A DNA stretch of 64,000 bases from Pirellulaceae bacterium (GCA_041399085.1 JAWKTM010000007.1:87822-151821); one strand, 5' to 3'; numbered from the stretch's first letter, positions 126-59,230 are shown. Numbers and translations are program-made. Notes: generated by a model from the sequence alone, not told the origin.

Positions 126-1090
126 TCACTCTGACTGGTCGTCGTCACGCGGTCGATTTGCCCAGTCAGGCAGTGGAACGGTAAACGTCACGCGTTGACC
201 TGTGGCCAGATGCATTGAAACCGATTCGCGCCAAGCATTAGCCAGACATAGAGGCGGATCGCCCACGCTTGGTCTGACGGTCACCGACTCCGCCATTGTC
301 CTGAATACATCCAGGTCGCCCACGACCGGCCAGCCGAATGCCAGAGGTGCAACCCGAATCTGATTCGTGCGGCCGGTGATCGGAGCGGGCTTCGACGAGA
401 CGCGACGCGTGCCGTCCGGCAGGCGGCTCGAGCGTGCGAAACTCGGTCAGCGATTCAAGCCGTCGTCGGCGATCGCTCATAGCCCCGACGGCTCCCCGTC
501 TGCTCGCTGATCGGGGCGTTGCAGCGGAACTCGTCCTCGCTCGGATGGCCGTGGACTCGCACCATATACGCCTTTTCCCGCTTCGCGCCGCTCGAACTGC
601 GGTTGCAGCCGACTGACCACCTGCCGCGTGCGGCTGAGCACCAGCCCGTGGTATTGGCGTCAACGATGCGGCACGCGCGCGGGCGTTCCGGGTGATACGC
701 CTCCGCGAGAATCTGAGTCAGCGTGTTGCGATTGAACTGGCCGCTCGGGTGAATCGGCAGCGGAGCGAACTATTCACCACCCAGGATCGCGCTCGTCGTA
801 CACGACGCGGATGTCGGCGTTCACATCCGGCTCGACCGTGCCGGGCATCACATGAAAGTACGTTTGCCCCGGCTGCTGCGATCTGGTCCGCCGAGACCGG
901 CCCGCGAACATCGACGATCGCGCCGGCCGCGAACAACGCCAGCCACTCGTCGCGGCGCATGCGGCAAGCAGCGCTGAGGGGAACTCGACCGCGCCGACGC
1001 CGGCAAACCGTTCGGGCACCTTGATCGGCCGGCGGTTCTCGTAAGGCGGCTGCCGGGCAGCGGCGTGGTGACTCGCCGATCGCCTCGTGC
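126..1090 (-). pseudogene. RluA-family pseudouridine synthase, spread over at least three reading frames (frameshifted)
   Basis: Minus-strand fragments carry RluA hallmarks: ADIRVVYDERD then a KP-type region; C-terminal TGRTNQIRVA (GRTHQIRVH motif), GDLDV...LATGQRVTFTVPLPD (3' ORF 126..323). No single frame is open. Confidence 0.5.
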
Positions 1091-1299
1091 CGCTCGTCGA
1101 TCGTCATCCGCAGCCGCTCGTCCGGCTCGCGATAGCAATACGGACACGACTGGCCGGGGACGTAGCGCGACGACTGTTGATCGGCCACGGTCAGCGGTTG
1201 TTGGCAGGCGACACTGCGTAGTGGTCTCTTGCAATCGCGGGTCAGAGCGCGAACGCAGCACGATCGAACCTTCAAGCAGTCGCCGTCGTAGTGCTCGCC

Positions 1300-2300
1300 G
1301 CCATGAGCTCGAAGTATTTGAGGATGCCGCCTTCCAGTTGCAGCACGTTGCGAGCCCACCGGTCGATCTGCCCCGTATCAGCGGCCCGGCCTTCTCACCG
1401 AATCCCGCCCGACGAAGGTCATTGGCCGCTCCTTGAGCGGCTCGAACAGCGCCGATCGACGGCGGCGGAAAATCGCGAAGTGATCGACGCCGATCGGCAC
1501 CGCGTTGCGGAACGTGCCGAGCTTGTTTCCGTAGTCGTTTCGCGTGTCGAGCAGCAGCCTCGCGGCCCCTTCACGTCCAGCCACTGTTTCCAGCTCGGCG
1601 GCCGACAGTTCGGCGACGTTGTTGGCCGGATCGATTCCGACGCCGAACAATGTTCCTGCTTGATCCGCGCACCAGCATCCGATTGAACGGCTGGCAAGAT
1701 CTGGCTGAAGCTCTCTTTCACATCAAATCTTCCAGCCCAGGGACCGCCCGCAGTTCGGCCCAGCGGCCGATCGATCGACAGGCGCGAGCCGGCCAGAAAC
1801 AGGTTGATGCCTTCCGTGCTGAGCAGGATCGTGCTAGCCGCCAGCGTTGCACACGCGACGCAATCGTTCGCGCGGCGGCACCAAGCTCGGGCGGCCGGAC
1901 GGGTGGCAGGCAGCGAAGTATTGACGACGGGCAACGTCGGTGCGGCAGCGAAAAGCGTTGGTCATGCGATCGGACGTCGGGCGGCAGATGGGAGAACAGC
2001 GGATGGAAGAAGCAGCGAAATCGCGTTCCGAGCGTCGAGATGGAATCGCGATCAGACGATCCGAGCGTACCGATTTCGATGCGAATGTGAAATCGGTGTA
2101 GTATCTTCCGCCGCTCGCCTTAAGAGCCGTCGGCCTCGGCGTCGGCTTCCTTCGCCGGGCCGTTGTCGTAGGACGCCTTTGTTTGGCTCGGAACTGCTTC
2201 CAATCGTCCAGTGCAACTTTGGCGAGACTCGTCGTTGGCGAATCCGACCGAGCTGACATCGAACACCGTTTGCGGCGTCGGCCAGAATGTGGTCGAACCA
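1300..2300 (-). pseudogene. Frameshifted fragments of unidentified gene(s)
   Basis: Protein-like minus-strand segments (e.g. GVGIDPANNVAELSAAELETVAGREGAARLLLDTRNDYGNKLGTFRNAVPIGVDHFAIF) are split over frames; no long ORF. Confidence 0.3.
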
Positions 2301-2329
2301 GCGTCATGGATCTTCGTCCACGAGATACC

Positions 2330-3355
2330 CTAAGGCAGCCAGAGCGACAATGTCTGACTTTGGTACTCGACGTTGTTGATCTTTTGATTGCCGCCGTAAG
2401 CCAGCTTGTCGTCCAATTGCTGTTCGAGCAGCTCGATCTGCCGCCGGTTACCCAATTTGGCAACGACCAAAATCGCGTACAGCCGCGCGTGCTGTTGAGC
2501 CAGATTCGGTTGCGAAAGCGTGCGAATCGCCGGCTGAAGTCCCTCGGGCAATTCGTAATGCACGGCCAAAATCATGCCTTGATAAGCCGTGTCGCCGTCG
2601 GCTCGTCGAATCCAGCCGCCCAGCAGCCGCCGCAATGTTTCTCGCTGCGGGCCGGCCGTGATCGCTTCGCGAAAGCCCTTTTGATACACGAACTGATACA
2701 CGTAGCTGGACGTGTTGTGGTCGATATTGATGTTCTCTTGGCCGGCGGCGAACAACAACGCGGCCACCGCGCCGACCGTCGGTTCGCGGCGATCCGTGGG
2801 GTTTTGGAGACCTTGCTGCAGGACCGCGACGCGAGCCGCCACGATTTCGGGCGTGGCGGCCGGGTTGTGCTCCAGCGTCTCCAACAACTCGGGCGTCGCC
2901 TTTTGCATCTCGACAAAAATCTGCCGCGCCTCGGGCTCTTCGCCGATCCGATCGCGATACGACTCCCAGCTCGGCAGCCCCATCCCGTCGGACTTATCCG
3001 GATTGTTCAGAAACTCGTTCAGCCGACGGCGGAAATCGACCTCCCGCACGATCGCCAAAATCCGCTCGCAGCGATAGCGAATTTCCCGGTCCGACTGATC
3101 CAGACCGCCTTCCAACGCCGGCAAGGCGGGCATGCCGATGCGGATCAGTTGCTCCGTCGCCCGCTCGCGAGCCGCAAATTCGGGATTTCCCAGTTGGGCC
3201 AGCAACGTGCCGATTCGCACGTCGTCGGCGCTGGCCGGGCCACCGCCCTTCAGTGGTTCGTCGGCCCGCAGCGATATCGGCGACAAGCACCCCCACGCCA
3301 ACCCGCAGGCCAAGCTCAATGCCGCGCCACAAACAAATGGTCGTTTGGTGTGCAT
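2330..3355 (-). CDS. Hypothetical secreted protein (N-terminal signal peptide)
   Basis: 341-aa ORF with hydrophobic N-terminus MHTKRPFVCGAALSLACGLAWG and balanced composition. The antisense 392-aa ORF is Arg-rich and looks spurious. Confidence 0.6.
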   Translation of the reverse strand: MHTKRPFVCGAALSLACGLAWGCLSPISLRADEPLKGGGPASADDVRIGTLLAQLGNPEFAARERATEQLIRIGMPALPALEGGLDQSDREIRYRCERILAIVREVDFRRRLNEFLNNPDKSDGMGLPSWESYRDRIGEEPEARQIFVEMQKATPELLETLEHNPAATPEIVAARVAVLQQGLQNPTDRREPTVGAVAALLFAAGQENINIDHNTSSYVYQFVYQKGFREAITAGPQRETLRRLLGGWIRRADGDTAYQGMILAVHYELPEGLQPAIRTLSQPNLAQQHARLYAILVVAKLGNRRQIELLEQQLDDKLAYGGNQKINNVEYQSQTLSLWLP

Positions 3356-3482
3356 CGTTGATTCTCCGGCCTCAAATGGCCGAACATCCGTGGTTGCTGG
3401 AAATTGGTTCGATTTCTATACTAGCCCGTTTCCCGTTGCCGCACATCGCCAAAACGGGAAACCCAGCCGATCAAATGGACAA

Positions 3483-3621
3483 TCAAAGCGGCAGGGCAAG
3501 CCCTCCGGCCACGCGTAACCGGACGGCTCGCGCCGTTCCGCTTCCATGAAAGCGGCAGGGCGCAAGCCCTCCGGTTCCGCATCGAAGCGGTAGGGCGCAA
3601 GCCCTCCGGTTCCGCCCAAAC
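3483..3621. repeat. Three tandem ~36-bp repeats (AAGCGGYAGGGCGCAAGCCCTCCGGTTCCGC), each with a GGGC-GCAA-GCCC hairpin-forming palindrome
   Basis: Direct reading: copies at ~3483, 3548 and 3584, in the divergent intergenic region between CDS 2330..3355(-) and 3747..3971(+). Confidence 0.6.
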
Positions 3622-3746
3622 GATCGGCCCGAACTAACCTTTGTCAAACATGTCGGGAACACGGCGAGCGGTTCACGCAGAGTGCAAGAACCACGCCGGA
3701 TACCCGAGTAAGATACCGGACGGACAGTCCTTCAGGGAGTTGAACC

Positions 3747-3971
3747 ATGACGATTGATAAAAGCTTGCGAGTGCGGGCCGGCATGATCCGCAATCGCAAC
3801 GTGCTGACTCGTGCCGAACGGATCGAGAAACTCGAACAAAACGATCGCTTCGGCGAAGGCGACGACGTACTGGGCTTGCCCAAGGTCCGCGTGCAAAAGC
3901 TGTCGCTGAAGAAGAAGAAGAAAGTGAAGAAGGAAGAGGACGGAGACGACAAGGGCAAGAAGAAGAAGTAG
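3747..3971 (+). CDS. Small lysine-rich basic protein, hypothetical
   Basis: 74-aa ORF preceded by a GGAG-like RBS; C-terminal KKKKKVKKEEDGDDKGKKKK tail. Confidence 0.5.
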   Translation: MTIDKSLRVRAGMIRNRNVLTRAERIEKLEQNDRFGEGDDVLGLPKVRVQKLSLKKKKKVKKEEDGDDKGKKKK

Positions 3972-4225
3972 TCGGCCGCTTAACCTCGCGGCGGACATGC
4001 CCAGCATCGCGTCATGAACACGAAGCCCGACTTGTCGGCAAGCTGCTACCCGCAGCGCCGACGCGTCGGGCTTTTTTCGTGTTCGCCTTTGGAGTGCTCC
4101 GCCTTGTCGGAGCTTTCTTTCCGTCAAGCGAGATCGGCCCTGCCTTGCCAACGCGGCCAGCGAGCCATCCAACTCCCTCCCGCCAATAATCCACGCCTGC
4201 AAATAACCGCGCGAGCAACCAGCCC

Positions 4226-5500
4226 ATGAAAGTGAAACTCGAATACGGACGCACGGGGCTCGAAGTCCAACTGCCCGCCCATCCGCACATGAGGCAACTC
4301 GCTTACAAAGATGCCGTGCCGCTGACTGATCCCGATGCCGAATTGCGGCAAATCTTGCAAACGCCCATCGGCTCGCCGTCACTAGCCGAACTGGCTCGCG
4401 GACGCCGCAGCGCCTGCATCCTGATCTGCGACATCACGCGGCCGGTGCCGAACGAGATGATCTTGCGGCCGATGCTCGAAACGCTCGAACAAGCCGGCAT
4501 GGCCCGCGACCAGATTCTCATCCTCGTCGCCACCGGACTGCATCGGCCCAACGTCGGCGACGAGCTGGTAGAAATGGTCGGCCAGCACATCGTCGACAAC
4601 TACCGGATCGACAACCACGACGGCCAGCAGCTCGACCAACACACGTACCTGGGCGACAGCCCGCGCGGCGTGCCGGTCTGGATCGACTCGCGTTACGTCC
4701 AAGCGGATCTGAAGATCGCCACGGGATTGATCGAACCGCATTTGATGGCCGGCTTTTCCGGCGGCCGCAAATTGATCTGTCCCGGCATCGCGGCGCTCGA
4801 AACCGTTCGAGTTTGGCACGGCCCCGATTTTCTGGAACATCCGAACGCCGACTGCGGCATCTTGATCGGCAATCCGGTGCATGAAGAGAACACCTGGATC
4901 GGTCGCCGAGCCGGCTGTGATTTTATTGTGAATGTAGTGATCGACGCCGAACGCCGGCCGCTGAAATGGGTCGCCGGCGATATGGAAGCCGCGTTCGAGG
5001 AAGGCGTGCGATTCGTGCGGTCGGTCGTCCTGGATACAGTGCCCGAACCGGTCGACATCGTGGTGACCAGCAGCGCCGGCTATCCGTTAGACACGACGTT
5101 CTATCAGTCGGTCAAAGCGATGACCGGCGCGCTGCCGATCGTCAAACAAGGCGGCACGATCATCGTCGCCGCCAGCCTGACCGAAGGCATCGGCAGTCCC
5201 CAGTTCCAGCAACTCTTTCACGAACATGCCGACCTGGACTCGTTCGTGCAATGCATCCTGGGCAAGGACTATTTCGTGATGGACCAATGGCAACTGGAAG
5301 AGTTGGCCAAGGTGCGTCGCAAGGCCCGCGTCAAGTTCTTCAGCGACGGCATGGCGAGCGAGACGCAGAACCAGTTGTTCGTCGAAGCCGCCCCCAGCGT
5401 CGAGCAAGCGTTGGCCGAATCGCTGGCGGAATACGGCCCCGAAGCTCGCGTAGCCGTGATTCCGAAAGGGCCGTATGTGCTGGCCCAAGTCGCCGGCTAA
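4226..5500 (+). CDS. LarA-family protein (nickel-pincer-dependent lactate racemase-like, DUF2088)
   Basis: N-terminus [14 protein letters not shown]; conserved VATGLHRP and [16 protein letters not shown] motifs typical of LarA. Confidence 0.8.
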
Positions 5501-5632
5501 CGAGCGTCGCCGTTCGGCCGCAAAGCTTCAAAATCTCACGGCCGCCGATTCAAGATTGGCCCAAGGATCGGCGCGGATTAAACTGGCGGCTTCCTCGATT
5601 GAACCACCCAACCTTCCGCCAGGATTCATGCC

Positions 5633-6553
5633 ATGTCCGAAACACTCGGCCGACGCGGCTTTCTTTCCGCTGGAATCGCTGCCGCTATCTCCGCACAATT
5701 AGCCGCGACGCACAACGAAGCTCGGGCGATCGAACCGATCGAGCGCAACGGCCAAGCGAAGTTCAAATACAGCTTGGCGGCCTACAGTTACCGCGGCCTG
5801 CTGCAAGGCAAGGCGGCCGAACTGACGATGCACGATTTCGTCAGCGACTGTGCGCGAATGGGGCTGGAAGGCACCGAGCTAACCTCGTACTACTTTCCGG
5901 CCGATGTCACGCCCGAGTACCTGCGCGACTTGAAGCGGCACTGTTTTCGGCTCGGACTGGACGTTTCCGGCACGGCGGTCGGCAACGACTTTGGACACGC
6001 CGATCCACAGAAGCTGCGCGAGCAAATCGAGCATGTGAAACACTGGGTCGACAACGCCGCGATCCTGGGCGCGCCGGTGATTCGGATCTTCGCCGGCCAT
6101 GTGCCGAAAGGCGGCTCGGCCGACGACACGCATCGCCAAATGGTGGCCGCGATCGACGAGTGTTGCGAATACGCGGGCCAGCACGGCGTGCATCTGGCGC
6201 TCGAGAATCACGGCGGTCCCACGGCGACGGCCGAAGGTTTGCTCCGCTTCGTCCACGATGTAAAAAGCCCTTGGTTCGGCGTCAATCTGGACGGCGGCAA
6301 TTTCCATACGGAGGACGTGTATGGCGACCTCGCCAAGGTCGCTCCCTACGCGTTGAACGTGCAGGTGAAAGTGGTCATCTCCGGCCCCGACAAGCAAAAG
6401 CAGCCCACCGATTACGCCCGCCTAGCCAAAATCCTGCGAGACGCCAACTACCGCGGCTACATCGTGCTGGAATACGAAGAATCCGGCGACCCACGCCAAG
6501 AATGCCCCAAATTCCTAGACGAAATCCGCACCGCATTCGAAGCATCGGCGTAA
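5633..6553 (+). CDS. Sugar phosphate isomerase/epimerase (xylose isomerase-like TIM barrel), Tat signal
   Basis: RRGFLSAG twin-arginine motif. TIM-barrel family signatures: HVKHWVDNAAILGAPVIRIFAG and HLALENHGG. Confidence 0.8.
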   Translation: MSETLGRRGFLSAGIAAAISAQLAATHNEARAIEPIERNGQAKFKYSLAAYSYRGLLQGKAAELTMHDFVSDCARMGLEGTELTSYYFPADVTPEYLRDLKRHCFRLGLDVSGTAVGNDFGHADPQKLREQIEHVKHWVDNAAILGAPVIRIFAGHVPKGGSADDTHRQMVAAIDECCEYAGQHGVHLALENHGGPTATAEGLLRFVHDVKSPWFGVNLDGGNFHTEDVYGDLAKVAPYALNVQVKVVISGPDKQKQPTDYARLAKILRDANYRGYIVLEYEESGDPRQECPKFLDEIRTAFEASA

Positions 6554-6801
6554 GGCCGAGATTAGCGAACGACTCCGTCCAATGATGGAAACAGGACTCG
6601 TAGGGCATGCTTCGCATGCCGCCCCTCGCGTTGGAATAAAACCCGCACGGGAGCACCAATTCACGGATTGGGTGGCACGCCCGGAATCTTCGACGGGCGT
6701 GACCCAGCCGCGATCGCCATCGCGCCAACCCCGCCGAAACGCCTGGCCCTTCGTTTCTCTCTCTGCGCTCTCCGCGGCTCCGCGTTTCCAAATCCTCGTT
6801 T

Positions 6802-6886
6802 TTTTTTGAAACGCGGAGACGCAGAGAGCGCAGAGGAAATGCTCGGATAAGAACTCTGCGTCCTCTGCGCCTCTGCGTTTCTATCT
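6802..6886. repeat. ~85-bp repeat, copy 1 (GAAACGCGGAGACGCAGAGAGCGCAGAGGAAATGCTCGGATAAGAACTCTGCGTCCTCTGCGCCTCTGCGTTTCTAT); internally an inverted repeat
   Basis: Near-identical copy at 7312..7420. Part of the unit is also found inverted at 6757..6800. Confidence 0.7.
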
Positions 6887-6902
6887 CTTACGAACCAGAT
6901 CA

Positions 6903-7295
6903 TCATCCCTCCTTGAAATTGTTGACGATCCGATGCAATCCATCGACCAATTTGACTTCGTGGAAATTAATCAGCAGACCGACCCGCAGGTTCATCAAAC
7001 GAAGGTGTGACAGAGTCTGCGCCTTATCGACGGGATGGATTGCCGACTTGGCTTTTAGTTCGACGACGACACTTCCGTTGACGAGTAAGTCAGCTCGGAA
7101 ACCGCATTCCAAATGAACTTCGTCGTAAACGACTGGGATTGGTTGTTCTTCGACGACTTCAAATCCCCGTTTGCGTAGCTCATACGCCAGACACTCTCGA
7201 TAAGCCGTTTCCAGTAGCCCCGGTCCGAGCCGCTGATGGACTTCGATCGCGGCGCCGATGATTGCCAGTGGTGCGCGTTCAGAACAGCAATTCAC
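6903..7295 (-). CDS. GxxExxY protein (PD-(D/E)XK-like small protein, TIGR04256 family)
   Basis: 130-aa ORF containing GPGLLETAY, which matches the GxxExxY motif. Flanked on both sides by the ~85-bp direct repeat. Confidence 0.8.
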   Translation of the reverse strand: MNCCSERAPLAIIGAAIEVHQRLGPGLLETAYRECLAYELRKRGFEVVEEQPIPVVYDEVHLECGFRADLLVNGSVVVELKAKSAIHPVDKAQTLSHLRLMNLRVGLLINFHEVKLVDGLHRIVNNFKEG

Positions 7296-7311
7296 CTCTG
7301 GTCGGAAGAAT

Positions 7312-7420
7312 TTGAAACGCGGAGACGCAGAGAGCCGCAGAGGAAATGCTCGTATAAGAACTCTGCGTCCTCCGCGCCTCTGCGTTTCTATGTCTTCCAG
7401 ACCCGATCATGATGCCTCCC
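7312..7420. repeat. ~85-bp repeat, copy 2 (direct repeat of 6802..6886)
   Basis: Sequence identity with copy 1 apart from a few substitutions and indels. Confidence 0.7.
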
Positions 7421-7589
7421 AACCGGAATTCTCTCGGGGAAGCCAAATGTGTGAATCGTCGGCCCTTTGCGAGCCGCGTTGTGTGCGCGGGAGATATGTT
7501 TCTTGAGGGGGCTGAGTTGTAGCCGGCGATCCACGTGCGGCGGTTAAGCTGCTTCGCTTGAAACTCGCCGTGGTTTAAGGGTTGGCCTG

Positions 7590-8225
7590 CTATTCGGCGT
7601 TTGCGGCATTTGGCTTGGTGACGTTTTCCGGAACGTCCTTGTCGCCAGAATCTTTGTTCGTTTTCCGTTCAACCAACTTGAGCGACGCCGAGTTGATGCA
7701 GTAGCGAAGGCCGGATGGTTCGGGGCCGTCGTCGAATACGTGGCCTAAGTGGGCGTCGCAGCGGTTACAGACCACCTCGGTTCGGACCATGAAATAGCCG
7801 CGGTCTTCGCGCTCGCCGACATGATCTCCGACCGGCTTCCAGAAACTCGGCCAACCGGTTCCGGAATCGAATTTGGTTTCGGAATCGAACAGAGGCGCTC
7901 CACAACATACACACTGATAGACGCCATCCTTCTTTGAATCGGCGTACTCGTTCGTAAACGGTCGCTCGGTCCCTTTCTGACGGGTCACATAGTATTGCTC
8001 GGGCGTCAGAAGCTCCTTCCACTCCGCGTCGGTCTTGGGCGTAAATTTGCTTTCCGACTTCGTGTTTCCCATCGGCTCGCCTCCCGCGTCGTCACGACTG
8101 GTCGACTCGACATCGGCCGAATTGCTGGAACGGCTCGTGGTCGCGGCCGAGTCGGTTCCGCTGTTTCGTCCACAACCAAGCGCAGTCGCGAAAACAACCG
8201 CCGACAGAATCAACCAATGCCGCAT
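7590..8225 (-). CDS. msrB: Peptide-methionine (R)-S-oxide reductase MsrB, lipoprotein-type signal
   Basis: CVCCGAPLF and [21 protein letters not shown] SelR/MsrB motifs. Likely start is [19 protein letters not shown], internal to the track ORF. Confidence 0.85.
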
Positions 8226-8349
8226 TACTAATCTCCTCGACTCGGGAAAACTCGCTGCGCGATGTGTGCCAAAGCTGCGGGAACCGGGAAAGCTTATCGA
8301 AATCCGCCCCGCTCGTCCCGCTCGAAACGGATCGAGCGGCAAGCGTGAC

Positions 8350-8784
8350 TCAGTATGTCTTCACGCGTTGCAGAAACCACCAGCGATGTCCTTCAAGATC
8401 GCGGGCTTCGTAGGTCCGATCGATCCAATAGCCGGGCCCGTAGTCTTGCGTCGCCGGCTCCATCAGAATCTCCGCTCCGGCAGCCCGCGCGGATTCGCAA
8501 TGCGCGTCGGCATCATCGACAACCACGCATAACGACTGTGTGTTCGCTCCGTCGAGCGAACGCGGCGACTGAACATGCGGTCGCTCGCTCTTGCCCGTCT
8601 GTCCCACCATAATCATGCCTTCGCCGAACGACAGTTGGCTATGCACGACTCGCCCTTGGTCGTCCTTCACCACCAATTCGGCGTGAAACCCAAACGTCTT
8701 ACACAACCACTCGATCGCCTCGGCCGCGTCATCGTAGAAGACAGCCGAAGCGATTCGTGGCCAACCGGCAGGTGGCGGATTCAT
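8350..8784 (-). CDS. VOC family protein (glyoxalase/bleomycin-resistance fold)
   Basis: 144 aa with a typical PhnB/glyoxalase-like pattern ([28 protein letters not shown]...). Confidence 0.7.
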
Positions 8785-8908
8785 TGCGTGTGACCTCGAA
8801 CTAGGTGCATTTTCGATCGTGGAAAATTTCGCGACGCCGACGCCAACGTCGTACCGAAATGTTAGCGATCGGTCTCACGCCTTGCAGGCGAGAAGCGTTC
8901 CGCGGTGA

Positions 8909-9346
8909 TTAGTTGCCAGTTGCCCGATTCTTGGCGTGATCCGATCTTTCGTGTTTCGCGGCGGCGATGGCCAGGAGCAGCCAGCCGATAATGAGGGCCG
9001 TGCCACCGATGGGGACAATGGCGCCCAGCAGTTTGACGCCGGTCAGGACCAACGCGTACAACAGGCCCGAGAAGATGGCGACGCCAAACAGAAAGCAGCA
9101 ACCGGCGGCGGGCAAGAGACGGGTTCGCGAGTTTCGCATGAGCAGTCCAGCGACGATGATTGCCAACGCGTGATACATCTGGTATCGCACGGCGGTCTCC
9201 CACACGTCCAGCAACCGCTGCTGCTCTTCGACCGTCGGGGCGAGGTCTGGCAGGGCGGAACGGAGGGCGTGAGCTCCAAACGCGCCGAGTGCGACGCCCG
9301 TCCCTCCCAAGACCGCTCCCGTGATCAGCCAAACTCGTCCGGTCAT
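8909..9346 (-). CDS. DUF423 (YgdD/TMEM256-like) membrane protein
   Basis: Four predicted TM helices; GAHALR motif; about 145 aa counted from MTGRVWLITG. Confidence 0.7.
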   Translation of the reverse strand: MTGRVWLITGAVLGGTGVALGAFGAHALRSALPDLAPTVEEQQRLLDVWETAVRYQMYHALAIIVAGLLMRNSRTRLLPAAGCCFLFGVAIFSGLLYALVLTGVKLLGAIVPIGGTALIIGWLLLAIAAAKHERSDHAKNRATGN

Positions 9347-9802
9347 TCGTTTCTCCCGGTCATTGTCTTCTAGGTTGCTTGCCGCGGACAAAGTCCTTCC
9401 GTCGCTGGCCGATTGCCCCGCTGCGTGTGTGGGAATTCTTGCGGCGGAACCGCCTCACGTCGAGCGGCAACGGCGGAAAATCCAGCGGAAGATTCAGCGG
9501 CAAGCTTGATGAACAGTTGACATTGCTAGCTTTGCCGAAGCTGCCTTGATTGCCAAGTCCCTGAGCGTCAGCACGTCGGAAACGGTGGCGAGAGCCGGGA
9601 CAGGATCTCGCGGATCGGGCAAATCTTACGGATTGGTCGGATTCGTCGAATTTTGACGACAACTTTGCCGATTAAGTGGATTGTCCTCGGAATGCAGATC
9701 GTATGGATTCTGCGCGTTGTTCCGGCCGATACAGATTGACGACTTACGGCACAGCGCCGAAAGGCTGACTTGCTAAACCTCAAGTGCCGCGGAGATTAAC
9801 CG

Positions 9803-11470: not shown

Positions 11471-11502
11471 ACGACTCGGCTCAGGTCAACGATCACGCAC
11501 GA

Positions 11503-11536
11503 AACCCGGCTCTTTCGAGCCGGGTTTTTTCGTTTG
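11503..11536 (+). terminator. Rho-independent terminator
   Basis: GAAACCCGGCTC-TTTC-GAGCCGGGTTTTTTCGTTT directly after the stop at 11470. Confidence 0.75.
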
Positions 11537-12281: not shown

Positions 12282-12295
12282 ACGTCGCCAAACAA

Positions 12296-30265: not shown

Positions 30266-30267
30266 GG

Positions 30268-46584: not shown

Positions 46585-46638
46585 TCGTTGGCTCCTTTGC
46601 GAACAGAATAGCGAATTCGCTGACTCGAAGTCGACTCG

Positions 46639-50220: not shown

Positions 50221-51134
50221 GAACCGGTGGTCAACGATTCGCGGAACTCGGCGATCCGATCTTCTTGTTCTTGCACGAGTGGATCGAACTGAGGAATCTC
50301 GACGGCGTTGTTACCCTGTTCGTGTTTGCGGAACAGGAACAAGTAAGTTTCGTTTTGCGGTCGGTAGCGGTGAAAGTACAGCTCGTTCTTCTTCTGAATC
50401 GCTTGCCGCATCGGCTCCAGTCGAGCGAAGTCGCTGATCGGAGTTGCACCTAACGCCGCCGCCAATCGCGGCGCCAACGTCTTATAACCGTCCGGCGTAA
50501 GATGTACGCCGTTGTTCGTCAGCCGCTCGTCGACGGGCGAAAGCTGTTGTAAGTCGACCGTCGGCAATTCGCGTTGCTTGGCGACTTCCGCCAAACGAGC
50601 CCGATAAAGTTGCAGCTTGGCATTGTATTCCGTGGGCGAAGGCAGCGGCTCGTCCGCCTGCTCGTAGCCGCGCGGCAGCAACAGAATCATGCGGGCGTCG
50701 GTCTTGGCCAATTCGTTCAGCAGTCGATTCAACCCCTGCGTAAAGTGCTCCAAACCGGCCTCGCCAGCGTGCGCTTCATTCGCGCCGTAAGCGATCAACA
50801 GCACGGTCGGCTTGGCTTCCGTCGTGTCTTTCAGCAATCGTCGAAAGCCATCTTCGGCCGAACCGAATACAGCCCGCGCTTCGCCAAACACCGTGTCGCC
50901 GCTCCAGCCGAGATTGCGAAACGTTATCCGCCGGTTGGGATAACCAGCCGTAATCGCCGTCTCGACAAACTCGCTGGCTTGCATCCGCTCGACAAATGCG
51001 CCGCCCAGCCACACGACTCGGTCGCCGTCCTTTAGCTCGATCGATTCGCCCCAAGCCGACCCAGCTCCTGCGAACCACAACGCACTACATGTCAAAATCA
51101 AACCCAGATGTCGCATATCGCGTTCGATCTCCAA
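50217..51134 (-). CDS. SGNH/GDSL-family hydrolase, secreted
   Basis: Signal peptide; blocks VVWLGGAF, LIAYGANE, DGVHLT. Its start overlaps the stop of the upstream dehydrogenase gene by 4 nt. Confidence 0.75.
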   Translation of the reverse strand: MEIERDMRHLGLILTCSALWFAGAGSAWGESIELKDGDRVVWLGGAFVERMQASEFVETAITAGYPNRRITFRNLGWSGDTVFGEARAVFGSAEDGFRRLLKDTTEAKPTVLLIAYGANEAHAGEAGLEHFTQGLNRLLNELAKTDARMILLLPRGYEQADEPLPSPTEYNAKLQLYRARLAEVAKQRELPTVDLQQLSPVDERLTNNGVHLTPDGYKTLAPRLAAALGATPISDFARLEPMRQAIQKKNELYFHRYRPQNETYLFLFRKHEQGNNAVEIPQFDPLVQEQEDRIAEFRESLTTGS

Positions 51135-51325
51135 AAACTTAGGCCATTCATTCTCGCCGCCATCGTGCTACCAGTAACCGCTGGCGACGACTGGCTCGCG
51201 AGCCTCGATGATCGGCGTTGCCAACGGGCTTCAAGTTTAATTCAATCACGGCGAAATGCTCGCCCGATTTCCGCCTGCTCGCCAACCGGCTGAACGAACC
51301 AGCCGCCGCCTAATCCTTCGCCGGC

Positions 51326-52258
51326 TTAATCTTTCGCCGGCTTCTGGCCCGGCTCGATCGGCGTCGCCTCTTCGTTTCCCCATTCGCTCCAACCGCGATA
51401 GTAATTCTGAATCTGGCTGGCTCCCATCAATTCGAAGCCGAACACCATCACCGACGCTCGGCCGCCCGATTGGCAATGCGTCGCCGTCGGTCGATTCAAG
51501 TCGATCCCGGCGTTGTTGAAAATCTGACGCAATTCGACAGCGGATTTGAAGCGGTGCGTCTCGGCGTCGACCAAATCGCTCCACTCCAGATGCTTCGCAC
51601 TCGGAATCGCGCCGGCTCGCTTGTTACTCAAGCCAGCCGTGCCGCAAAACTCACCTTCGGATCGCGAATCGACAATCTGCAATTTTCGACTTCCGTTCAG
51701 AGCGCCCAAGATATCCGACTTCGTGGCCAGCCAATCGCGCCGCTTTTCGGGCTCGAACTTCACGGCCGTCACTTCCGTTGGCTGACCATCGGCCGTGGGA
51801 AGTTCGGCAGTCTGCCAAGCTTTCCAGCCGCCGTTCAACAACCGCGCGTCGCTGACGCCCCAATACCGCAGGATCCACCAAATCCGAGCGGCATTCTTCA
51901 TCTGGCTATCGTCGTACAACACGACTCTCGAGCCGTTGCCGATCCCCAGTTCCCCGATCCGTTGGCCCCATTGCTCGGCATCGTCGCCATCGCCAAACGC
52001 TTTGGCCCACAGTCCGTGATCGACCCACCGAGCTCCCGGAATTCGCTGTTCGGCAAACGCCTCCTCGGACCGGACATCCAAAATCGTGTACCGCCCGGCG
52101 ACGTCTGGCTTGGCCAGTTCCGCTGGCTCCAACAGCAATTGCGGCCGCGAATAACTTGCATCCGCCCCGCTCGCCACCGACGCCGCGGCGTCCGCGATCG
52201 ATAGTCCAACCAATAGCAACGTCCAAACTTTGATACTCGCAACATTCAACCGCAACAT
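51326..52258 (-). CDS. Thiosulfate/3-mercaptopyruvate sulfurtransferase (tandem rhodanese domains), secreted
   Basis: Two rhodanese modules; active-site CQSGGRAS. Confidence 0.85.
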   Translation of the reverse strand: MLRLNVASIKVWTLLLVGLSIADAAASVASGADASYSRPQLLLEPAELAKPDVAGRYTILDVRSEEAFAEQRIPGARWVDHGLWAKAFGDGDDAEQWGQRIGELGIGNGSRVVLYDDSQMKNAARIWWILRYWGVSDARLLNGGWKAWQTAELPTADGQPTEVTAVKFEPEKRRDWLATKSDILGALNGSRKLQIVDSRSEGEFCGTAGLSNKRAGAIPSAKHLEWSDLVDAETHRFKSAVELRQIFNNAGIDLNRPTATHCQSGGRASVMVFGFELMGASQIQNYYRGWSEWGNEEATPIEPGQKPAKD

Positions 52259-52522
52259 GGGCGTTCTCCGAGCGACCTAGCCGAGCGAATGGCATCGCTG
52301 CCATGAGTTTTTCGATGGCTGGAATTGTATCGAGTGTAGTTGGCCCTGGAAGCTCGCACAGCCATTTTGGTCTTGCGCCACGTGAAGAACGACGAATGCT
52401 CCCAGCACATGGCGAAGCCAAACAGAAAAAAACGGCTCCGTTCTCGTGGAACGGAGCCGTCTTCCGGTTGTTCTCGACAGAGCCTCTCAAGTGGCTCTGC
52501 ATCGTTCGTGTCGATTTATCGA

Positions 52523-53467
52523 CTAGCGACCGCCAATCGCGCCACCGATGCCAGCGCCAATAGCCGCGCCCGAGCGACCGCCGATCGCGCCGCCGATGTT
52601 GGCGCCGATGTTCGATCCCGCTTGGTAACCACGGTTCCCATAACCGTATCCGCCATAGCCACCGTAGCCACCATAGCCGTAGCCCGGATTGTAATAGTTG
52701 TTGCCCCAACCATTATTGTAGTAGCCATTGTTGTAATAGCCGCTACGGAATCCGGGGCGATAGTAAGAGTTGTTATAACCGCGGTTATTGTTGTAATACT
52801 GGCCGCCGTCGTTGTAGTACATGCCCGAGTTGTTATTAGTGCCGCGATAGCCTACCGACTGACGAGGACTATATGCCTGCCAGTTGCCGCCATCGTGCCA
52901 CATCCAAGTGTTATTGGGAGTCCAATACCACCACTGGCCATTATGGCGGACGAAACGCCAGCGAGCGTTGCGGCCATTGTCACGCATATTTTGAGCATTC
53001 ATGTCGGCATTCGCGCCGGCGTTGCCTTGATTGTCGAACTGACCTTGAGCATTCAATTGCCCTTGTGAGTTCGCGCGAGTTTGTCCGCCTAGATTGGCGT
53101 CGGAACCGAGATTCGCATTACCGCCGATATTGGCGTTAGGGTCGAGCTGCGGCGAAGTATCCGCGGCGTTCAAACCACCTTGAGCGTTCGCTCCAACATT
53201 AGCGCCCGCACCCGTATTCGGCCCGAGGTTCGCCCCCACATCCGTATTCGCGCCAACGCCCGTGTTCGCACCGACTCCGGTGTTAGCTCCGACGCCCGTA
53301 TTCGCTCCGACGCCCGCGTTACCGCCGACGTTTGGCTCGGTCAACTGCTTGGCGGCATTCACCGCGCCGAGGTCGCCGGTGGCGCCGACATCGACTTGGG
53401 CGATGGCTTGGGACGCGGTCCAACCGAGGACGGCGGTCAAGGCAACGGATAACATTGTGATTCGCAT
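52523..53467 (-). CDS. Secreted low-complexity protein: GANTGV hexapeptide repeats, a Trp-rich core (WRFVRHNGQWWYWTPNNTWMWHDGGNWQAY) and a Gly/Asn/Tyr-rich tail
   Basis: Signal peptide MRITMLSVALTAVLGWTASQAIAQ; compositional reading. Confidence 0.6.
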   Translation of the reverse strand: MRITMLSVALTAVLGWTASQAIAQVDVGATGDLGAVNAAKQLTEPNVGGNAGVGANTGVGANTGVGANTGVGANTDVGANLGPNTGAGANVGANAQGGLNAADTSPQLDPNANIGGNANLGSDANLGGQTRANSQGQLNAQGQFDNQGNAGANADMNAQNMRDNGRNARWRFVRHNGQWWYWTPNNTWMWHDGGNWQAYSPRQSVGYRGTNNNSGMYYNDGGQYYNNNRGYNNSYYRPGFRSGYYNNGYYNNGWGNNYYNPGYGYGGYGGYGGYGYGNRGYQAGSNIGANIGGAIGGRSGAAIGAGIGGAIGGR

Positions 53468-53962
53468 AGCCTAATCTCCTTGAAGTAGTGTGGTGAGCAC
53501 GACTGGTGGGTTACTCACGCGGTTGGCGGCTCACCCAATGCCTCTTGCGATCCGCATGATTTCTAAGCGGCGCCAACGCGCGAAGGCAATGATTCGCCCC
53601 CCGCACGCGACGCCTTGTATTCAACTAGCAGGCGCCGACGCGTCCATTCGATCGGCCGCTCGAACATTCAGCGACGGCGACTGCATGGGACAAGCTTTTT
53701 TGCAACCAGTGTGCCGCTCCGCTCCGGATTGCGGTAATCCTGGGCGAATTGAGACGCATGGCGTCGGTTCGACCTGCGCGTCAGCGACCGAATGGCCGAA
53801 CCTTGTCTTACAAACGCCGATGGGCGGCGGGAAAACGACCGGGCTGCTCGCTGGGACGCTTGTTGACGCAGCCGCTCGGCATGGGAAATAATCATCGCTG
53901 CTGGCGGGTCGCCGCGATCCGTTCGTTCCACGCTTCCGTCACATCAGCAGGAGTTATCTCAC

Positions 53963-55277
53963 ATGTACCGACGAACGTTTCTCACCGGCGGCGCGATGGC
54001 GGCGGCTGCGGTTCCGGCGTCGCGGATGGCTCGCGCGGCGAAGGCCAACGACCGAATTCGCGTCGGCCTAATCGGTTGTGGCGGGCGCGGGCGAGGCGTA
54101 GCGGCTGGCTTCGCGGGCTTGAAGGAAGTGGAGGTCGCGGCCGTTTGCGATCCCGATTCCGGACATGCCGCCAGCACGTCTCAGTTGTTGCCGAACAAGC
54201 CGCCGGTTCAAGCCGACATGCGGCGGTTGCTGGACGACAAGTCGATCGACGCGGTGATCGTGGCGACGCCGGATCATTGGCACGCTCCGGCCGCGATTCT
54301 GGCCGCCGAGGCGGGCAAGCATGTCTATGTCGAAAAGCCTTGTTCGCACAACGTGCGCGAAGGTCGATTGTTGGTCGACGCGGCTCGGCGGAACAAACGG
54401 TTGATCCAACACGGTACTCAGAGCCGCTCGATGTCGCTGATCGCGCACGCCGTGCAACTGCTTCGCGACGGCATCATTGGCGACGTGTTGACCGCGAAGG
54501 CTTGGAACGTGCAGAAACGCGGGCCGATCGGCAAAGCCCAACCGAGCAAGCCGCCGTCGGGAGTCGACTACGATTTATGGGTTGGGCCGGCGAGTTGGCT
54601 GCCGTACCAGTCGAATCGTTTCCACTACACCTGGCATTGGTGGCATAATTTCGGCACCGGCGACATGGGGAACGATGGCGTCCATGAGCTGGATATTGCT
54701 CGCTGGGGGTTGGGTGTGACCGAACATCCGTCGACCGTGGCGGCGATCGGCGGCAAGCTGGCTTATGACGACGATCAGCAGTTTCCCGACACTCAGTATG
54801 TCCAGTTCGACTATCCGGGCGATGGTCGGCCGGGGTCGCGACGGCAATTGATCTTCGAGATGCGATTGTGGTCGCGCTACGGCCTGCAGGGCTTCGACAA
54901 TGGCAATGCGTTCTACGGAACGAGCGGCTGGATGTTGCTGAGCAAGCGGGCGCTTGAAGGTTTACGACGAGCGCAACCGCGAGCTGGAGCTGAAGCCTTC
55001 GGATCTGAACTTGCCGGCTCACGATCAGAATTTCATCAACGCGATCCGTGGCGAGCAGCCGTTGACGGCCGAGATCGAAATAGGCCATTTGTCGGCGACA
55101 CTATGCCACCTGGGCAACATCGCGACTCGCTTGGGACGATCGCTCGCGTTCGATCCCCGAACAGAAACCGTGGCGGACGATGCCGAAGCCAATCGGATGC
55201 TCGGCCGCGAGTATCGCGACGGCGGCCATTGGGCGATCCGGCGGCTGCGGATAAACGAAACAGCGGCTGCGGGTTAA
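53963..55277 (+). CDS. Gfo/Idh/MocA-family oxidoreductase with Tat signal; one apparent frameshift near 54950
   Basis: RRTFLTGG; Rossmann motif VGLIGCGGRG; C-terminal part continues in ORF 54954..55277 (KVYDERNRELELKPSDL...). Confidence 0.7.
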
Positions 55278-55296
55278 ACGATCGTGCGACCTGCTT

Positions 55297-56934
55297 TTAC
55301 GGGCGGCGAGCGACGCTTTGCTTGGGGATGACGCCCAGATAGGCGAAGAGGTCGGAGATCTCTTCCAGCGTGAGCGTGTCGAGCAATGCGGAGGGCATGG
55401 CGGACGTCTTGCTGGGCGTGATCTCATCCACGTCGTCGCTGGGGATCGTTACCTTCGTGCCGTCTGACTTGAGCACCAACACTTCGCCCGTCGGCGTTTG
55501 GCTGATGATGCCGCTGTGTACTATCCCATCGGCGGTGACCACCGTCTTGGCCGCGTATTGATCGCTAATCACATGGCTGGGGAACACGATCGATTCCAGA
55601 ATCTCACGCTTCGTAAACCGGCGGCTGACGGTCGTCAGGTCCGGGCCCATTGACTCGCCGCGATCGCCGAACCGATGGCACTTGGCGCATTGGGCTTTGG
55701 CAAACACTTGCTCGCCGCCATCGGTCGAACCGGTCGAGCCGTCGTCGCTGGCCAAGTGTTCCAGCAGCTCGTCGAACTGCCATTTCGTTCCTTCGGCCGC
55801 TACCGGCAATTCGGCGGCCGGATGATCGGGATACCGATCGGCGAACCAAACTTGCCACCGCTCGATCGCCACGTCCCAAGTTTCGCTGTCATCGTGCGGC
55901 TCGCCGGTCCAATGTTCCAGCAACGTAATGGCCTGCGCCGCGCCGCCTTCCTTGAGCTCCAATCCGCGTAGGATCACTTGGCGATAAAGCTCGGGATCTT
56001 CCGGCGCTTCGTCGACCGTTGCCAAACGCGAGAGCACTTCGCGAGCCGCCGCGCCTTCCAGAACGGGCAGGCTGCGGACCAAGAAGCTCCAGTTCTCGCC
56101 TTCTGGCTGCTGGGCCAAACCCATCGCCACCGTGTGACGGCGTTCCGGCGCTCGGTCCCAAATCTCGCGCAAGTAGCTCATCGAATGCTCGTCGCCGCTG
56201 CGAGCCAGCACGGCGACCAAGCCCACCTTGAGCGGCTCGTAATCTTCGTTCCACTCGTCGCCCAAACGGGCATCCAGCACACGCAGATCCGCCAGGGTCG
56301 CGATGTCCAGTTCCTTGGGCAATCGGTACAGTGCGCCCACGGCCGCATCGGGCCAGAGGTCGCCGCGAGCCAGAACATTGCGGCTCTCTTCGGGCGACAG
56401 CGAACGTCCGACATCTCGCAACACGTTGATGATGTAGTGTTCGTAGCTGCCGCCGCCTTCATTGGCTTTGGCTGTCTGCAAATAGTCGATCAATTCCAGC
56501 TTTTGGCCAGCCTGCCAGCCGTCGTTCACGAAACGCAGGTGCAGGGCCAAGTGCAATTTTTCCTCGGGCGGCGCATCGGATTTCAAATACTGCATCGCTC
56601 GCGGCAACACCGACGAAGCTTGCAGATACGTCATCAGCCGCACGATTTCGCGATTCATCGTGACGTCGCCGGCCGGGAACTCTTCGGCGATTTGCGTTTG
56701 CAGTCCCGGCACATCGGCCGCTTGAATCCGGCCGCGATGCAGGGCGACTTCGGACACGCGCAGCATGTCGATAAAATCGCGGTCGCTGGTGAATCCGGTA
56801 ATGAGCGTGCTGAACTGGGCGATCACTGCCAGCGCGTGATCGCGAGTCGGCGCGGCGGTCAACAGCGCCAGCGAACCCTGAATGAAAACCCGCTTGTTGT
56901 CGCTGGCCAGCACGGCGTCGCGCCACGTTTCCAC
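55297..56934 (-). CDS. C-terminal part (HEAT repeats plus CxxCH cytochrome c) of a dehydrogenase-HEAT-cytochrome c gene split from 56972..59230
   Basis: CAKCHRFGDRGESMGPDL haem motif. Upstream ORF ends ...KLLGSDDR*, and the next frame continues ...PLVALLERQPVETWRDAVLASD. Confidence 0.7.
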   Translation of the reverse strand: METWRDAVLASDNKRVFIQGSLALLTAAPTRDHALAVIAQFSTLITGFTSDRDFIDMLRVSEVALHRGRIQAADVPGLQTQIAEEFPAGDVTMNREIVRLMTYLQASSVLPRAMQYLKSDAPPEEKLHLALHLRFVNDGWQAGQKLELIDYLQTAKANEGGGSYEHYIINVLRDVGRSLSPEESRNVLARGDLWPDAAVGALYRLPKELDIATLADLRVLDARLGDEWNEDYEPLKVGLVAVLARSGDEHSMSYLREIWDRAPERRHTVAMGLAQQPEGENWSFLVRSLPVLEGAAAREVLSRLATVDEAPEDPELYRQVILRGLELKEGGAAQAITLLEHWTGEPHDDSETWDVAIERWQVWFADRYPDHPAAELPVAAEGTKWQFDELLEHLASDDGSTGSTDGGEQVFAKAQCAKCHRFGDRGESMGPDLTTVSRRFTKREILESIVFPSHVISDQYAAKTVVTADGIVHSGIISQTPTGEVLVLKSDGTKVTIPSDDVDEITPSKTSAMPSALLDTLTLEEISDLFAYLGVIPKQSVARRP

Positions 56935-56971
56935 CGGCTGACGTTCCAGCAGTGCGACGAGCGGCGAAGGC

Positions 56972-59230
56972 TCAGCGATCGTCGGACCCCAGCAACTTTG
57001 ATACGGCTTTGAACGGCACGGGTTGTTCGCCGCGAGTCAACGCTTCGCACGCTTTTCGCGCGACGAACCGATCCGAGTCGTCCAGCATTTCGATTAGTCG
57101 CTGGCTGGCCTGTTCGTCCGTTTGCTGCCCCAGCAGTTCCGCCGCGGTGGCTCGCAACAGCTCGTTCGGTTCCTGCGACATGTCCAGCAGCAAATCGAGC
57201 GACGGCGAAGGTCCGAACCATTGCATCACTTGCAATGCACGCGTGCGATAGTGCGGCGGATTCTCGGAACTGCGAGCGACACCTTCCAGCAGCTTGCCCC
57301 AATCCGAGCCCAGCTCGCGCTGCAGCTTGGCCAACTCCTGGCGGCTCCAGGCGGCGTGCAATTGCGGTTGGCGAATGACGGCCGAGATGCCGGTGCCCAG
57401 GTTAGTCACCGCCTCGGGAACTTGGCCGTTCCAACTCACTCGGTACAGACCGCCAGCCGTGCCTCGACCGCCGGTCACGAAATACAGACTGCCGTCCGGG
57501 CCGACGTCCAAATCCGTCACGTTCAACGGTCGCCCAGCAAGAAACACTTCGCTGTTGGCGGTCACGCCGCTGCCGTTGCGTTTCGTGTGGACGGCCAAGA
57601 TGCGGCCTTCGGACCAGTCCGCCAAGAACACGGCGTCGTGATACTTGGCCGGAAACATGTGATGGTTGTAGACCACACTGCCGGTCGGCGATCCGCGGCC
57701 CGTGTCGAGCACTTGCGGCACGCCGTCCACGTAATAGTCGGGCCACTTGGACCAACCGCTGCGCCAACCAAATTCGGCGCCCGGCGTGACAAAGCAAACG
57801 CGTGTCGGGCGATACCAAGTCGTGCCCAGGTCCGATTCCATATCGGAATCGTGCGTGTAGAGATCGCCGTCGCGGCTGAAGCAAAGGTCGTAGGCGTTTC
57901 GCAATCCGCCGGCGACCACCTCGACCTTCGAGCCTTCGAGATCGGTGCGAATGATCGTGCCGCCGGGCGCCTTGATGCCAGCCGCATGGCCGGTCGGATC
58001 TTCGTAACGCGGGAACAGATCGCCTTCGTATCCATTGCGATAGGGACTGGAATCGGCGTATCCATCCGCGGCAGCCGTGTGATTGCCGATTATCACGTAG
58101 ATCATTCCGTCGGGACCGAACGCGATTCCGTGCGCTCCGTGCTCGCCTCCTTCGCGGTTGAATTTGACCAGCGGCGTGACTTGTTCCAGGCGACCATCGC
58201 GGTCCGTATCGGTCAGGCGGTACAGCGCGTTGCCATCCGGTCCGTCGGCCGTGACGTAGACCTCGCCGTTCAATGCCAAGATGCCTTGGCAATTCTTTAC
58301 CGCTTCGCAGTAGGGCCGGACCTTGTCGACCAATCCATCGTCGTCGCTGTCGTACATCAGCAACAACGGGCCGCCTTCTTGGCCGGCCAACACATGCCCA
58401 AATTCGTTGAAGGTCATGGTGATTAGCGAGCCGACCGTTTCGCTGTCGATCAGGCGTTCCACTTGGAATTGATCGACGATGTCAAAGCGATCGTTTTGCG
58501 GTTCGGTTTTCGGCGCTTCCGTCGGGACTTCCTCGACCGCCACTTGTTCGCGCACATCCCAAGGCGCCGTTTCGCCGAGCGGCCCGAAGGCTTGCGCGAC
58601 GGACCAGCGGGCGTCGTTGTAAATCGGCGCGGACCACAGCGGCAACGGATTGAGGTTCGTCTTCCAACTCTTGTCGGTCGAGAACGAACGCCAGCGTCCG
58701 TCGCCTTCTTGCACCATGACACGCGCCGCGACGGCCGCTGTCGAGCCGCGCGTGTTCGTGACCTTGATCGCAATCAGATTCGTGCCGCGACGAATGTGGG
58801 GCGAGATGTTGTGTTCGTCCAGTTTCTGCGAGCCGCCGTTGCCGCGAGCGATCATGCGACCGTTGACATACAATTCGTATTCGTCATCGGCGGTGATCGA
58901 AACCTGCGCTTGCCGAGGCTGGGAGGTCGGGAACGTGTGGCGGAAGTAGCACGAGGTTCGTGGAACTTGGCCGCGCTGGTGCGACGGCGACCAAATCCAT
59001 TGAGCTTCATTGGCTGCTTGGCCGACGGCGGACGTCATCATCGCCACGGCGAAGGCCGCGACGACAATGAACTTTTGCCAGCGTGGGCTGCCGACGTGAT
59101 TCAGCAATGAGGCCGTACGATTACAGCGGATCGCGGATTCCGTCATCCTGACTTCTCCGGAGATAAGATCGGGCGTGTTCCGTGGGCGCGGCGGAGCGGT
59201 CTTCGCTCGTTTCTCGTGTCGCGTAGGCAA
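56972..59230 (-). CDS. N-terminal part (DUF1080-like lectin domain plus beta-propeller dehydrogenase domain plus first HEAT repeats) of the same split gene
   Basis: Signal/TM; propeller segments (GMIYVIIGNHT..., GSLYFVTGGRG); separated from 55297..56934 by one frame change. Confidence 0.7.
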   Translation of the reverse strand: MPTRHEKRAKTAPPRPRNTPDLISGEVRMTESAIRCNRTASLLNHVGSPRWQKFIVVAAFAVAMMTSAVGQAANEAQWIWSPSHQRGQVPRTSCYFRHTFPTSQPRQAQVSITADDEYELYVNGRMIARGNGGSQKLDEHNISPHIRRGTNLIAIKVTNTRGSTAAVAARVMVQEGDGRWRSFSTDKSWKTNLNPLPLWSAPIYNDARWSVAQAFGPLGETAPWDVREQVAVEEVPTEAPKTEPQNDRFDIVDQFQVERLIDSETVGSLITMTFNEFGHVLAGQEGGPLLLMYDSDDDGLVDKVRPYCEAVKNCQGILALNGEVYVTADGPDGNALYRLTDTDRDGRLEQVTPLVKFNREGGEHGAHGIAFGPDGMIYVIIGNHTAAADGYADSSPYRNGYEGDLFPRYEDPTGHAAGIKAPGGTIIRTDLEGSKVEVVAGGLRNAYDLCFSRDGDLYTHDSDMESDLGTTWYRPTRVCFVTPGAEFGWRSGWSKWPDYYVDGVPQVLDTGRGSPTGSVVYNHHMFPAKYHDAVFLADWSEGRILAVHTKRNGSGVTANSEVFLAGRPLNVTDLDVGPDGSLYFVTGGRGTAGGLYRVSWNGQVPEAVTNLGTGISAVIRQPQLHAAWSRQELAKLQRELGSDWGKLLEGVARSSENPPHYRTRALQVMQWFGPSPSLDLLLDMSQEPNELLRATAAELLGQQTDEQASQRLIEMLDDSDRFVARKACEALTRGEQPVPFKAVSKLLGSDDR

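Follow-up and report, generated by a model that had tools for sequence, protein, structure and literature searches.

Frameshift-interrupted genes in a Pirellulaceae sequence cluster in bounded zones and most likely reflect local sequence quality

The window analysed here is a 64,000-nucleotide (nt) stretch of DNA from a Pirellulaceae bacterium (GCA_041399085.1, JAWKTM010000007.1:87822-151821), in which an earlier note had named ten genes readable only with switches of frame, alongside a tRNA-Leu(CAG) gene with a short anticodon loop. Frameshift-tolerant alignments bear out the interruption of all ten, which in most cases is heavier than had been claimed. We show that the lesions are specific to the window sequence, are lacking in independent conspecific assemblies, are indifferent to gene boundaries and have an error-like spectrum. 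We are therefore confident that the broken genes are an artefact of sequence quality, with a cause that is most likely technical and not gene decay or recoding. The main value of this finding is as a warning on base-level quality. Approximately one-quarter of the window (~16 kb) is unreliable at base level, and gene calls, pseudogene counts, tRNA inventories and inferences of recoding or odd tRNAs drawn from the affected sequence should be set aside until it has been re-polished.

Base-level damage is limited to three zones, apart from isolated lesions in clean sequence:

Noisy zone 1, approximately 1..2330: truncated by the window start; lesions documented at 132-1884; right edge within 1885-2332.
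Noisy zone 2, 12353..17005: both edges intragenic; the first lesion relative to sister contig L163 is at 12353 and the last frameshift at 17005.
Noisy zone 3, at least 21142..29764: lesions documented at 21142-24057 and 29178-29764; right edge within 29765-30270.

The density in the zones is ~1.8 small indel events per 100 nt. A tRNA array sits between the two documented lesion stretches of zone 3.

Window-specific lesions and zone edges

Sister contigs were found through protein look-ups and derive from conspecific short-read metagenome-assembled genomes (MAGs) that are ~99% identical to the clean stretches of the window; four stretches of zone or clean sequence were covered by conspecific contigs. 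Contig L161, from MAG GCA_020426765.1, encodes the protein P0001 and was aligned to window positions 19594-24057. Further conspecific contigs (L163, L164 and L167) were reached via exact-protein look-ups, and a contig from a species only 80% identical (L162) served as an outgroup for polarising differences. Outside the noisy stretches the four conspecific contigs are 98.2-99.1% identical to the window, and they are without any of its 55 + 2 indels. Noisy sequence has 55 of these window-specific indels in 3042 nt and clean sequence has 2 in 9099 nt; this 82-fold difference (p = 8e-31) substantiates the clustering of lesions described in the earlier note.

The transition into noisy sequence is visible within single alignments. 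Against L161, positions 19594-21120 (1527 nt) are free of indels and hold 18 mismatches, 17 of them inside the gene and 11 of these at codon position 3; the 2.9 kb from 21142 onward contain 51 indel events and 153 mismatches. With L162 as outgroup, every one of the 80 gap columns in 21142-24057 is assigned to the window branch. The alignment to L163 is free of indels over 10199-12352 and then contains 4 indels within 126 nt from 12353. Clean stretches elsewhere gave a gap-free alignment to L162 (17352-19828) and, relative to L164 and L167 over 55263-60659, only two window-specific indels (56953 and 56973).

Breaks shared with orthologues had been put forward as a mark of true pseudogenes. The sister MAGs that cover the genes for a family 39 glycosyltransferase (GT39), a secreted protein and a 1283-aa dehydrogenase instead encode all three intact and in a single frame, and several of the affected genes are available in intact form from GCA_020426765.1, GCA_020426785.1 and GCA_020426975.1. 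Exact-protein look-ups found no match for the 839-aa protein, LarA or the HEAT protein, nor, with two start codons tried for each, for the 30271-30831 protein or the Band 7 protein, so there is no DNA-level reference for the edges near 2330 and 30000 or for the tRNA array. A homologue search with a mixed clean-zone query gave nothing useful, and in another search PQQ proteins crowded out homologues of the Gfo protein and of the dehydrogenase junction.

The 51 events in zone 3 relative to L161 divide into 25 insertions and 26 deletions, none longer than 5 nt (31 of 1 nt, 16 of 2 nt, three of 4 nt and one of 5 nt). Their spacing is close to random (mean 56 nt, standard deviation 43 nt), and spacers, with 14 events, are affected as often as genes. 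Localised assembly indels had been one cause offered by the earlier note, with homopolymer errors as the example. The sister contigs favour that cause, but the example does not hold for the noisy zones: only 5 of the 51 indels in 21142-24057 fall in homopolymer runs of 3 or more.

Substitutions behave differently from indels. For the GT39 gene, changes on the sister branch are 15 synonymous and 4 nonsynonymous, a sign of purifying selection, and those on the window branch are 16 and 19, respectively. The similar synonymous counts imply similar real divergence on both branches and ~20 extra random substitutions (~1%) in the window, fewer than the 34 indel events in the same gene. We considered and rejected the possibility that the excess mismatches of zone 3 are all errors. 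Polarisation with L162 reveals faster change in this zone on the sister branch too; most of the mismatches are thus real divergence and only ~1% is extra.

Frame changes at the protein level were counted by frameshift-tolerant dynamic-programming alignment of homologous proteins to the DNA, and open reading frame (ORF) fragments were concatenated with X linkers before the Pfam scan. Single Pfam domains (PseudoU_synth_2, Aldose_epim, PQQ_2, DUF7133, HNH and GFO_IDH_MocA_C2) span fragments in different frames. Plots of third-position G+C (GC3) and codon-usage scores gave a weak signal in the affected regions and did not resolve the positions of the shifts. The following genes lie in the zones or across their edges:

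132..1940, minus strand: RluA-like gene, a fusion of UPF0176_N, rhodanese and PseudoU_synth_2 domains, ~600 aa.
12296..14298, minus strand: membrane domain plus aldose 1-epimerase, aligning as one protein like P0162 (655 aa).
14556..15789, plus strand: PQQ-like beta-propeller gene; the homologue alignment spans 14611-15786.
16490..19813, plus strand: heme-binding dehydrogenase (DUF7133, HEAT and cytochrome c), a type common in Planctomycetota and relatives.
Approximately 19877..21438, minus strand: secreted protein, 519 aa in L161, with its N-terminal ~100 codons within noisy zone 3.
21906..23714, plus strand: GT39 gene; the alignment covers 21906-23711.
23901..23980, plus strand: wrecked tRNA-Ser(GGA) gene, with 5 nt deleted, 2 nt inserted and several bases substituted.
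29030..29919, plus strand: HNH endonuclease gene, with 6 frameshifts within 29178-29764.

In total there are 80 frame changes in 7.8 kb across six genes, at a density (6.6-13.3 per kb) that is similar among these unrelated genes. The protein-level alignment of the GT39 gene, for which about ten shifts had been reported, gives 24 frame changes and one stop; with these corrected, the product shares 89% identity with the intact P0001. The RluA-like fusion has 19-22 shifts in an alignment running from 1884 to 132, its Pfam PseudoU_synth_2 match extends over two ORF fragments, and it is 61% identical to P0003 and P0008 once corrected. Its architecture joins a TrhO-like UPF0176_N domain and rhodanese module to an RluA pseudouridine synthase, and the same fusion occurs in >100 homologues of ~600 aa (P0003-P0120), whose named sources are Planctomycetota, Verrucomicrobiota and others. 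The membrane and epimerase parts of the second gene, which carries 13 frameshifts and one in-frame stop (alignment from 14298 to 12317), align as a single protein, and this suggests a membrane-anchored epimerase fusion. The PQQ propeller has 10 frameshifts (14789-15489) and a stop at 14752.

Damage in the tRNA-Ser(GGA) gene is of the same kind. This gene is base-for-base identical in L161 and L162, from species just 80% alike, and in the window its D loop has been removed by the 5-nt deletion; both ARAGORN and the Rfam tRNA model miss it at 23901-23980.

Three of the zone edges (12353, 17005 and 21142) are intragenic, and the portions of the edge-crossed genes that lie beyond the zones are without lesions. 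The edge at 12353 falls in the last codons of the epimerase. The edge at 17005 is ~270 codons into the heme-binding dehydrogenase, which has 5 shifts in its first 0.5 kb (16607, ~16678, 16769, 16821 and 17005) versus none in the following 2.8 kb, to 19810; at the zone rate, the probability of no event in 17006-19810 is 9e-23. The edge at 21142 is ~100 codons into the secreted protein, for which the first 0.3 kb has three indels (21142, +2; 21224, +2; 21290, +1) versus none in the remaining 1.26 kb; here the probability of no event in 19877-21141 is 1e-10. Five window-specific substitutions lie within 160 nt at 20852-21009, directly before the first indel of zone 3, and given these the left edge of this zone may be slightly fuzzy. 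For the heme-binding dehydrogenase, the first ~100 residues of its homologues were not found upstream of the gene, and the relatives that contig scans of genomes and metagenomes gave for the 933-aa dehydrogenase reach at most 47% identity and were used as distant homologues.

A probable mosaic of sequence quality

These patterns are best accounted for by a mosaic, in which accurate, short-read-like stretches of the window alternate with error-dense ones resembling raw or low-coverage long-read consensus, with ~3% error that is mostly indels. Such a mosaic would be expected in a long-read or hybrid genome or metagenome assembly that was corrected only in part. Candidate steps are the bridging of gaps between short-read contigs with raw or low-coverage long-read sequence, or a failure of short-read polishing over some stretches. 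Any gene or RNA gene within a noisy stretch would then read as frameshifted, including tRNA-Ser(GGA) and, most simply, tRNA-Leu(CAG).

Watson & Warr are said to have argued in Nat Biotechnol in 2019 that long-read assembly errors can critically affect protein prediction. Indels that fragment genes are known from long-read assemblies (PMC12007338, Kastor; PMC9262707), and the homopolymer indels of R10.4 nanopore sequence require polishing (PMC9262707). The window resembles long-read or hybrid assembly errors in that small indels split conserved genes into adjacent ORF fragments, the breaks are not in accurate conspecific assemblies, and non-coding DNA and RNA genes are equally affected. It differs from typical long-read errors in that its lesions are confined to sharp-edged multi-kb patches, mostly avoid homopolymers and show no excess of insertions over deletions or the reverse. 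Errors of this patchy, balanced and non-homopolymer kind point to unpolished or gap-filled stretches rather than to a uniformly unpolished assembly.

Several observations weigh against a technical origin. The platform or assembly step is something that we infer and have not seen, and the comparisons for zone 1, for the inside of zone 2 and for the HNH gene used only distant protein homologues. The error spectrum is not dominated by homopolymers, unlike that of the usual polished nanopore assemblies; this argues against a classic nanopore, 454 or Ion Torrent signature but not against an artefact as such. None of the 51 indels relative to L161 is of 3 nt, which is odd for any simple error model. 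The window-specific substitutions have an evolutionary-looking transition:transversion ratio (~2.2) and are probably mostly real divergence. Finally, ~10 tRNAs of the array within zone 3 still score 55-65 bits, and noise across the array may be lower or patchy. The absence of 3-nt indels from 21142-24057 is also unexpected under neutral evolution, and a 3-nt deletion does exist at 56973.

Isolated lesions and alternative explanations

Frame-state segmentation of the whole window placed same-strand frame switches within clean sequence at 54952 and 56977 only. Three sites in clean sequence carry, or probably carry, an isolated lesion:

55297 to ~59150, minus strand: dehydrogenase of 1283 aa, with two lesions 20 nt apart at 56953..56975.
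53963-55274, plus strand: Gfo/Idh/MocA gene, with one +1 frameshift at 54945..54980, where there is a GGG run (54948-54950).
32484..32486, plus strand: tail of the Band 7 gene, with a GGG run and a probable +1 lesion shifting the last ~20 codons.

The dehydrogenase lesions are an insertion of 1 nt (56953) and a deletion of 3 nt (56973), the latter producing a TGA stop; neither is in L164, L165 or L167, which encode the intact 1283-aa protein. A slip in a GGGG run was rejected as the source of the shift at 57.0 kb, since the sister DNA shows a 3-nt deletion and a 1-nt insertion elsewhere. The homology of three sister contigs ends exactly at 55263, 12 nt before the stop codon of the Gfo/Idh/MocA gene, and this loss of synteny means that the Gfo shift is not checkable against them; the Gfo region appears to be strain-variable. 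Beyond this boundary, L164 (1-316) runs into 21-nt tandem repeats. For the Band 7 gene, the tail in the alternative frame (GNLNVVLGEKDLPSAVNLL*) has a codon score of +11.0 versus -9.8 for the annotated frame. This lesion was not borne out by homologues, the corrected variants had no exact-protein match and NCBIfam was uninformative on the C-terminus.

It is possible, if doubtful, that the lesions at these sites (Band 7 at 32484, Gfo/Idh/MocA at ~54950 and the dehydrogenase at 56953 and 56973) arose by real mutation in this strain, as truly young pseudogenes or as slips in homopolymers. Their surroundings are clean, with 42-51 mismatches and no further window-specific indel in 5.2-5.4 kb; two coincide with G runs, a setting for genuine slippage; and the Gfo gene lies in a strain-variable region, as indicated by the synteny break. 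Yet homopolymer error may fit the two lesions at G runs (32484-86 and 54948-50), and ~1 residual indel per 10 kb is also seen in partly polished long-read assemblies. The two independent indels of the dehydrogenase, 20 nt apart and lacking in three sister sequences, look more like a local consensus failure than separate mutations.

For the zones themselves, the earlier note had raised real clustered pseudogenisation, in which three patches would recently have begun to decay neutrally with the rest of the genome under selection. We consider this highly improbable. The confinement of the lesions to the window branch, a few in-frame stops beside the shifts and the natural-looking transition bias of the substitutions would fit such decay, and the nonsynonymous excess in the GT39 gene could stem from relaxed selection. 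However, neutral decay in bacteria would affect whole genes, with substitutions outnumbering indels and a bias towards deletion, and the loss of an invariant tRNA-Ser would hardly be tolerated. Here zone edges cut through three genes, of which 2.8 kb and 1.26 kb are left perfect; GT39 indels exceed the excess substitutions; and zone indels show no deletion bias and avoid homopolymers. The six genes, though unrelated, have similar frameshift densities, the tRNA-Ser(GGA) gene is destroyed despite its invariance between species, and orthologues are intact wherever sister contigs with ~99% flanking identity cover them. Pseudogene-rich genomes such as those of Mycobacterium leprae and recently host-restricted symbionts decay by gene units, are dominated by substitutions and larger deletions, and have lesions common to related strains. 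The window shares with them many frameshifted or stop-bearing genes beside intact neighbours, but shows no gene-unit decay, no dominance of substitutions or large deletions and no lesions shared with relatives.

The patches might also be real products of an indel-rich local burst of hypermutation in multi-kb tracts, for example through error-prone repair synthesis, but we judge this extremely unlikely, as we do its consequence that ~10 genes and part of a tRNA array were inactivated with the flanking DNA spared. Were reads to confirm the indels, such sharply bounded, indel-rich tracts would constitute a new mutational phenomenon. Programmed ribosomal frameshifting or other recoding, also suggested in the earlier note, has nothing in its favour beyond the frame changes themselves and can be practically dismissed, because individual genes contain 20 or more shifts, in both directions and with no site in common. 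The shifts match DNA indels against sister genomes, in which one frame suffices for the proteins that could be compared (GT39, the 55.3-59.2 kb dehydrogenase and the secreted protein), and spacers and tRNA genes are also affected.

tRNA array and sound sequence

The array comprises ~28-30 tRNA genes on one strand, at 23901-28227, 30154-30227 and 30858-30935, and about two-thirds of ~28 array tRNAs have some structural irregularity. One member is described separately:

27404..27487, plus strand: tRNA-Leu(CAG), Rfam 36.8 bits.

The 6-nt anticodon loop attributed to this gene is present, as TCAGAA at 27438-27443, closed by GCGACG/CGTCGT as a stem of 6 bp. In the fold preferred by ARAGORN the arm has 5 bp and a loop of 8 nt (anticodon 'caga'), the gene is called tRNA-???, and 2 nt rather than 1 separate the D stem from the anticodon stem, a second irregularity. 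Anticodon loops of other than 7 nt are known, for instance the 8-nt loops of frameshift-suppressor tRNAs, and ARAGORN can fold the window gene in that way. Unlike suppressor tRNAs, the window gene folds equally well with 6 bp and a 6-nt loop, has an extra nucleotide before the anticodon stem, and is positioned between two error-dense stretches and near the corrupted tRNA-Ser. One or two small indels would be the simplest cause, with tRNA-Ser as precedent; we infer this, because contig scans found no orthologous tRNA array for comparison. A scan of viral contigs with the tRNA-Ile(TAT) pattern gave no match.

Odd members of the array include tRNA-Leu with short variable arms, the tRNA-Ile(TAT), a 94-nt 'Pro(CGG)' and a tRNA-Ala with the T-loop CCCGAATT. 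More wrecked tRNAs could lie hidden in the second half of the array, where there are gaps of 90-255 nt. As the array is in or beside an error-dense zone, its oddities are not yet trustworthy. The sequence at 30858-30935, directly downstream of the intact gene at 30271-30831, is tRNA-like (Rfam 54 bits, model positions 5-66), with an ATG anticodon and an encoded CCA end. ARAGORN misses it, and its first four 5' nucleotides do not match the 3' acceptor strand as a stem. A truncated copy of a tRNA, such as an attachment-site remnant, could account for it, as could damage.

The window has a G+C content of ~60%, and its proteins (BBP7, PSCyt2/PSD1, DUF7133 heme dehydrogenases and the best matches) assign it to the Planctomycetota, near Pirellulales. 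Genes are open over >40 kb between and after the noisy zones. The multi-kb neighbours that had been described as open are uninterrupted, the large genes encoding 2008, 1193, 1033, 933 and 839 aa. The sound sequence comprises:

2333..12352: clean zone with HEAT, LarA, xylose-isomerase-like, PDDEXK_3, MsrB, glyoxalase, DUF423, BBP7 and Usp genes, all open, with full-length Pfam matches.
2333-3415: intact gene adjoining zone 1.
17006..21141: clean zone of ~4.1 kb.
30271..64000: clean zone of ~34 kb, with large genes all open and the 3 isolated lesion sites.
30271-30831: intact gene adjoining zone 3, of the Pfam family 23S rRNA intervening-sequence protein.

A secreted protein encoded at 52526-53470 on the minus strand has no Pfam match; Gly, Asn and Tyr abound in its long low-complexity runs. 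In the first clean zone, the gene of the PD-(D/E)XK nuclease family (PDDEXK_3, 6906-7406) is intact within 6805-7419 and is flanked by direct repeats of ~110 nt (6805-6912 and 7311-7419) that are 89-100% identical, and an inverted repeat lies nearby at 6761-6835.

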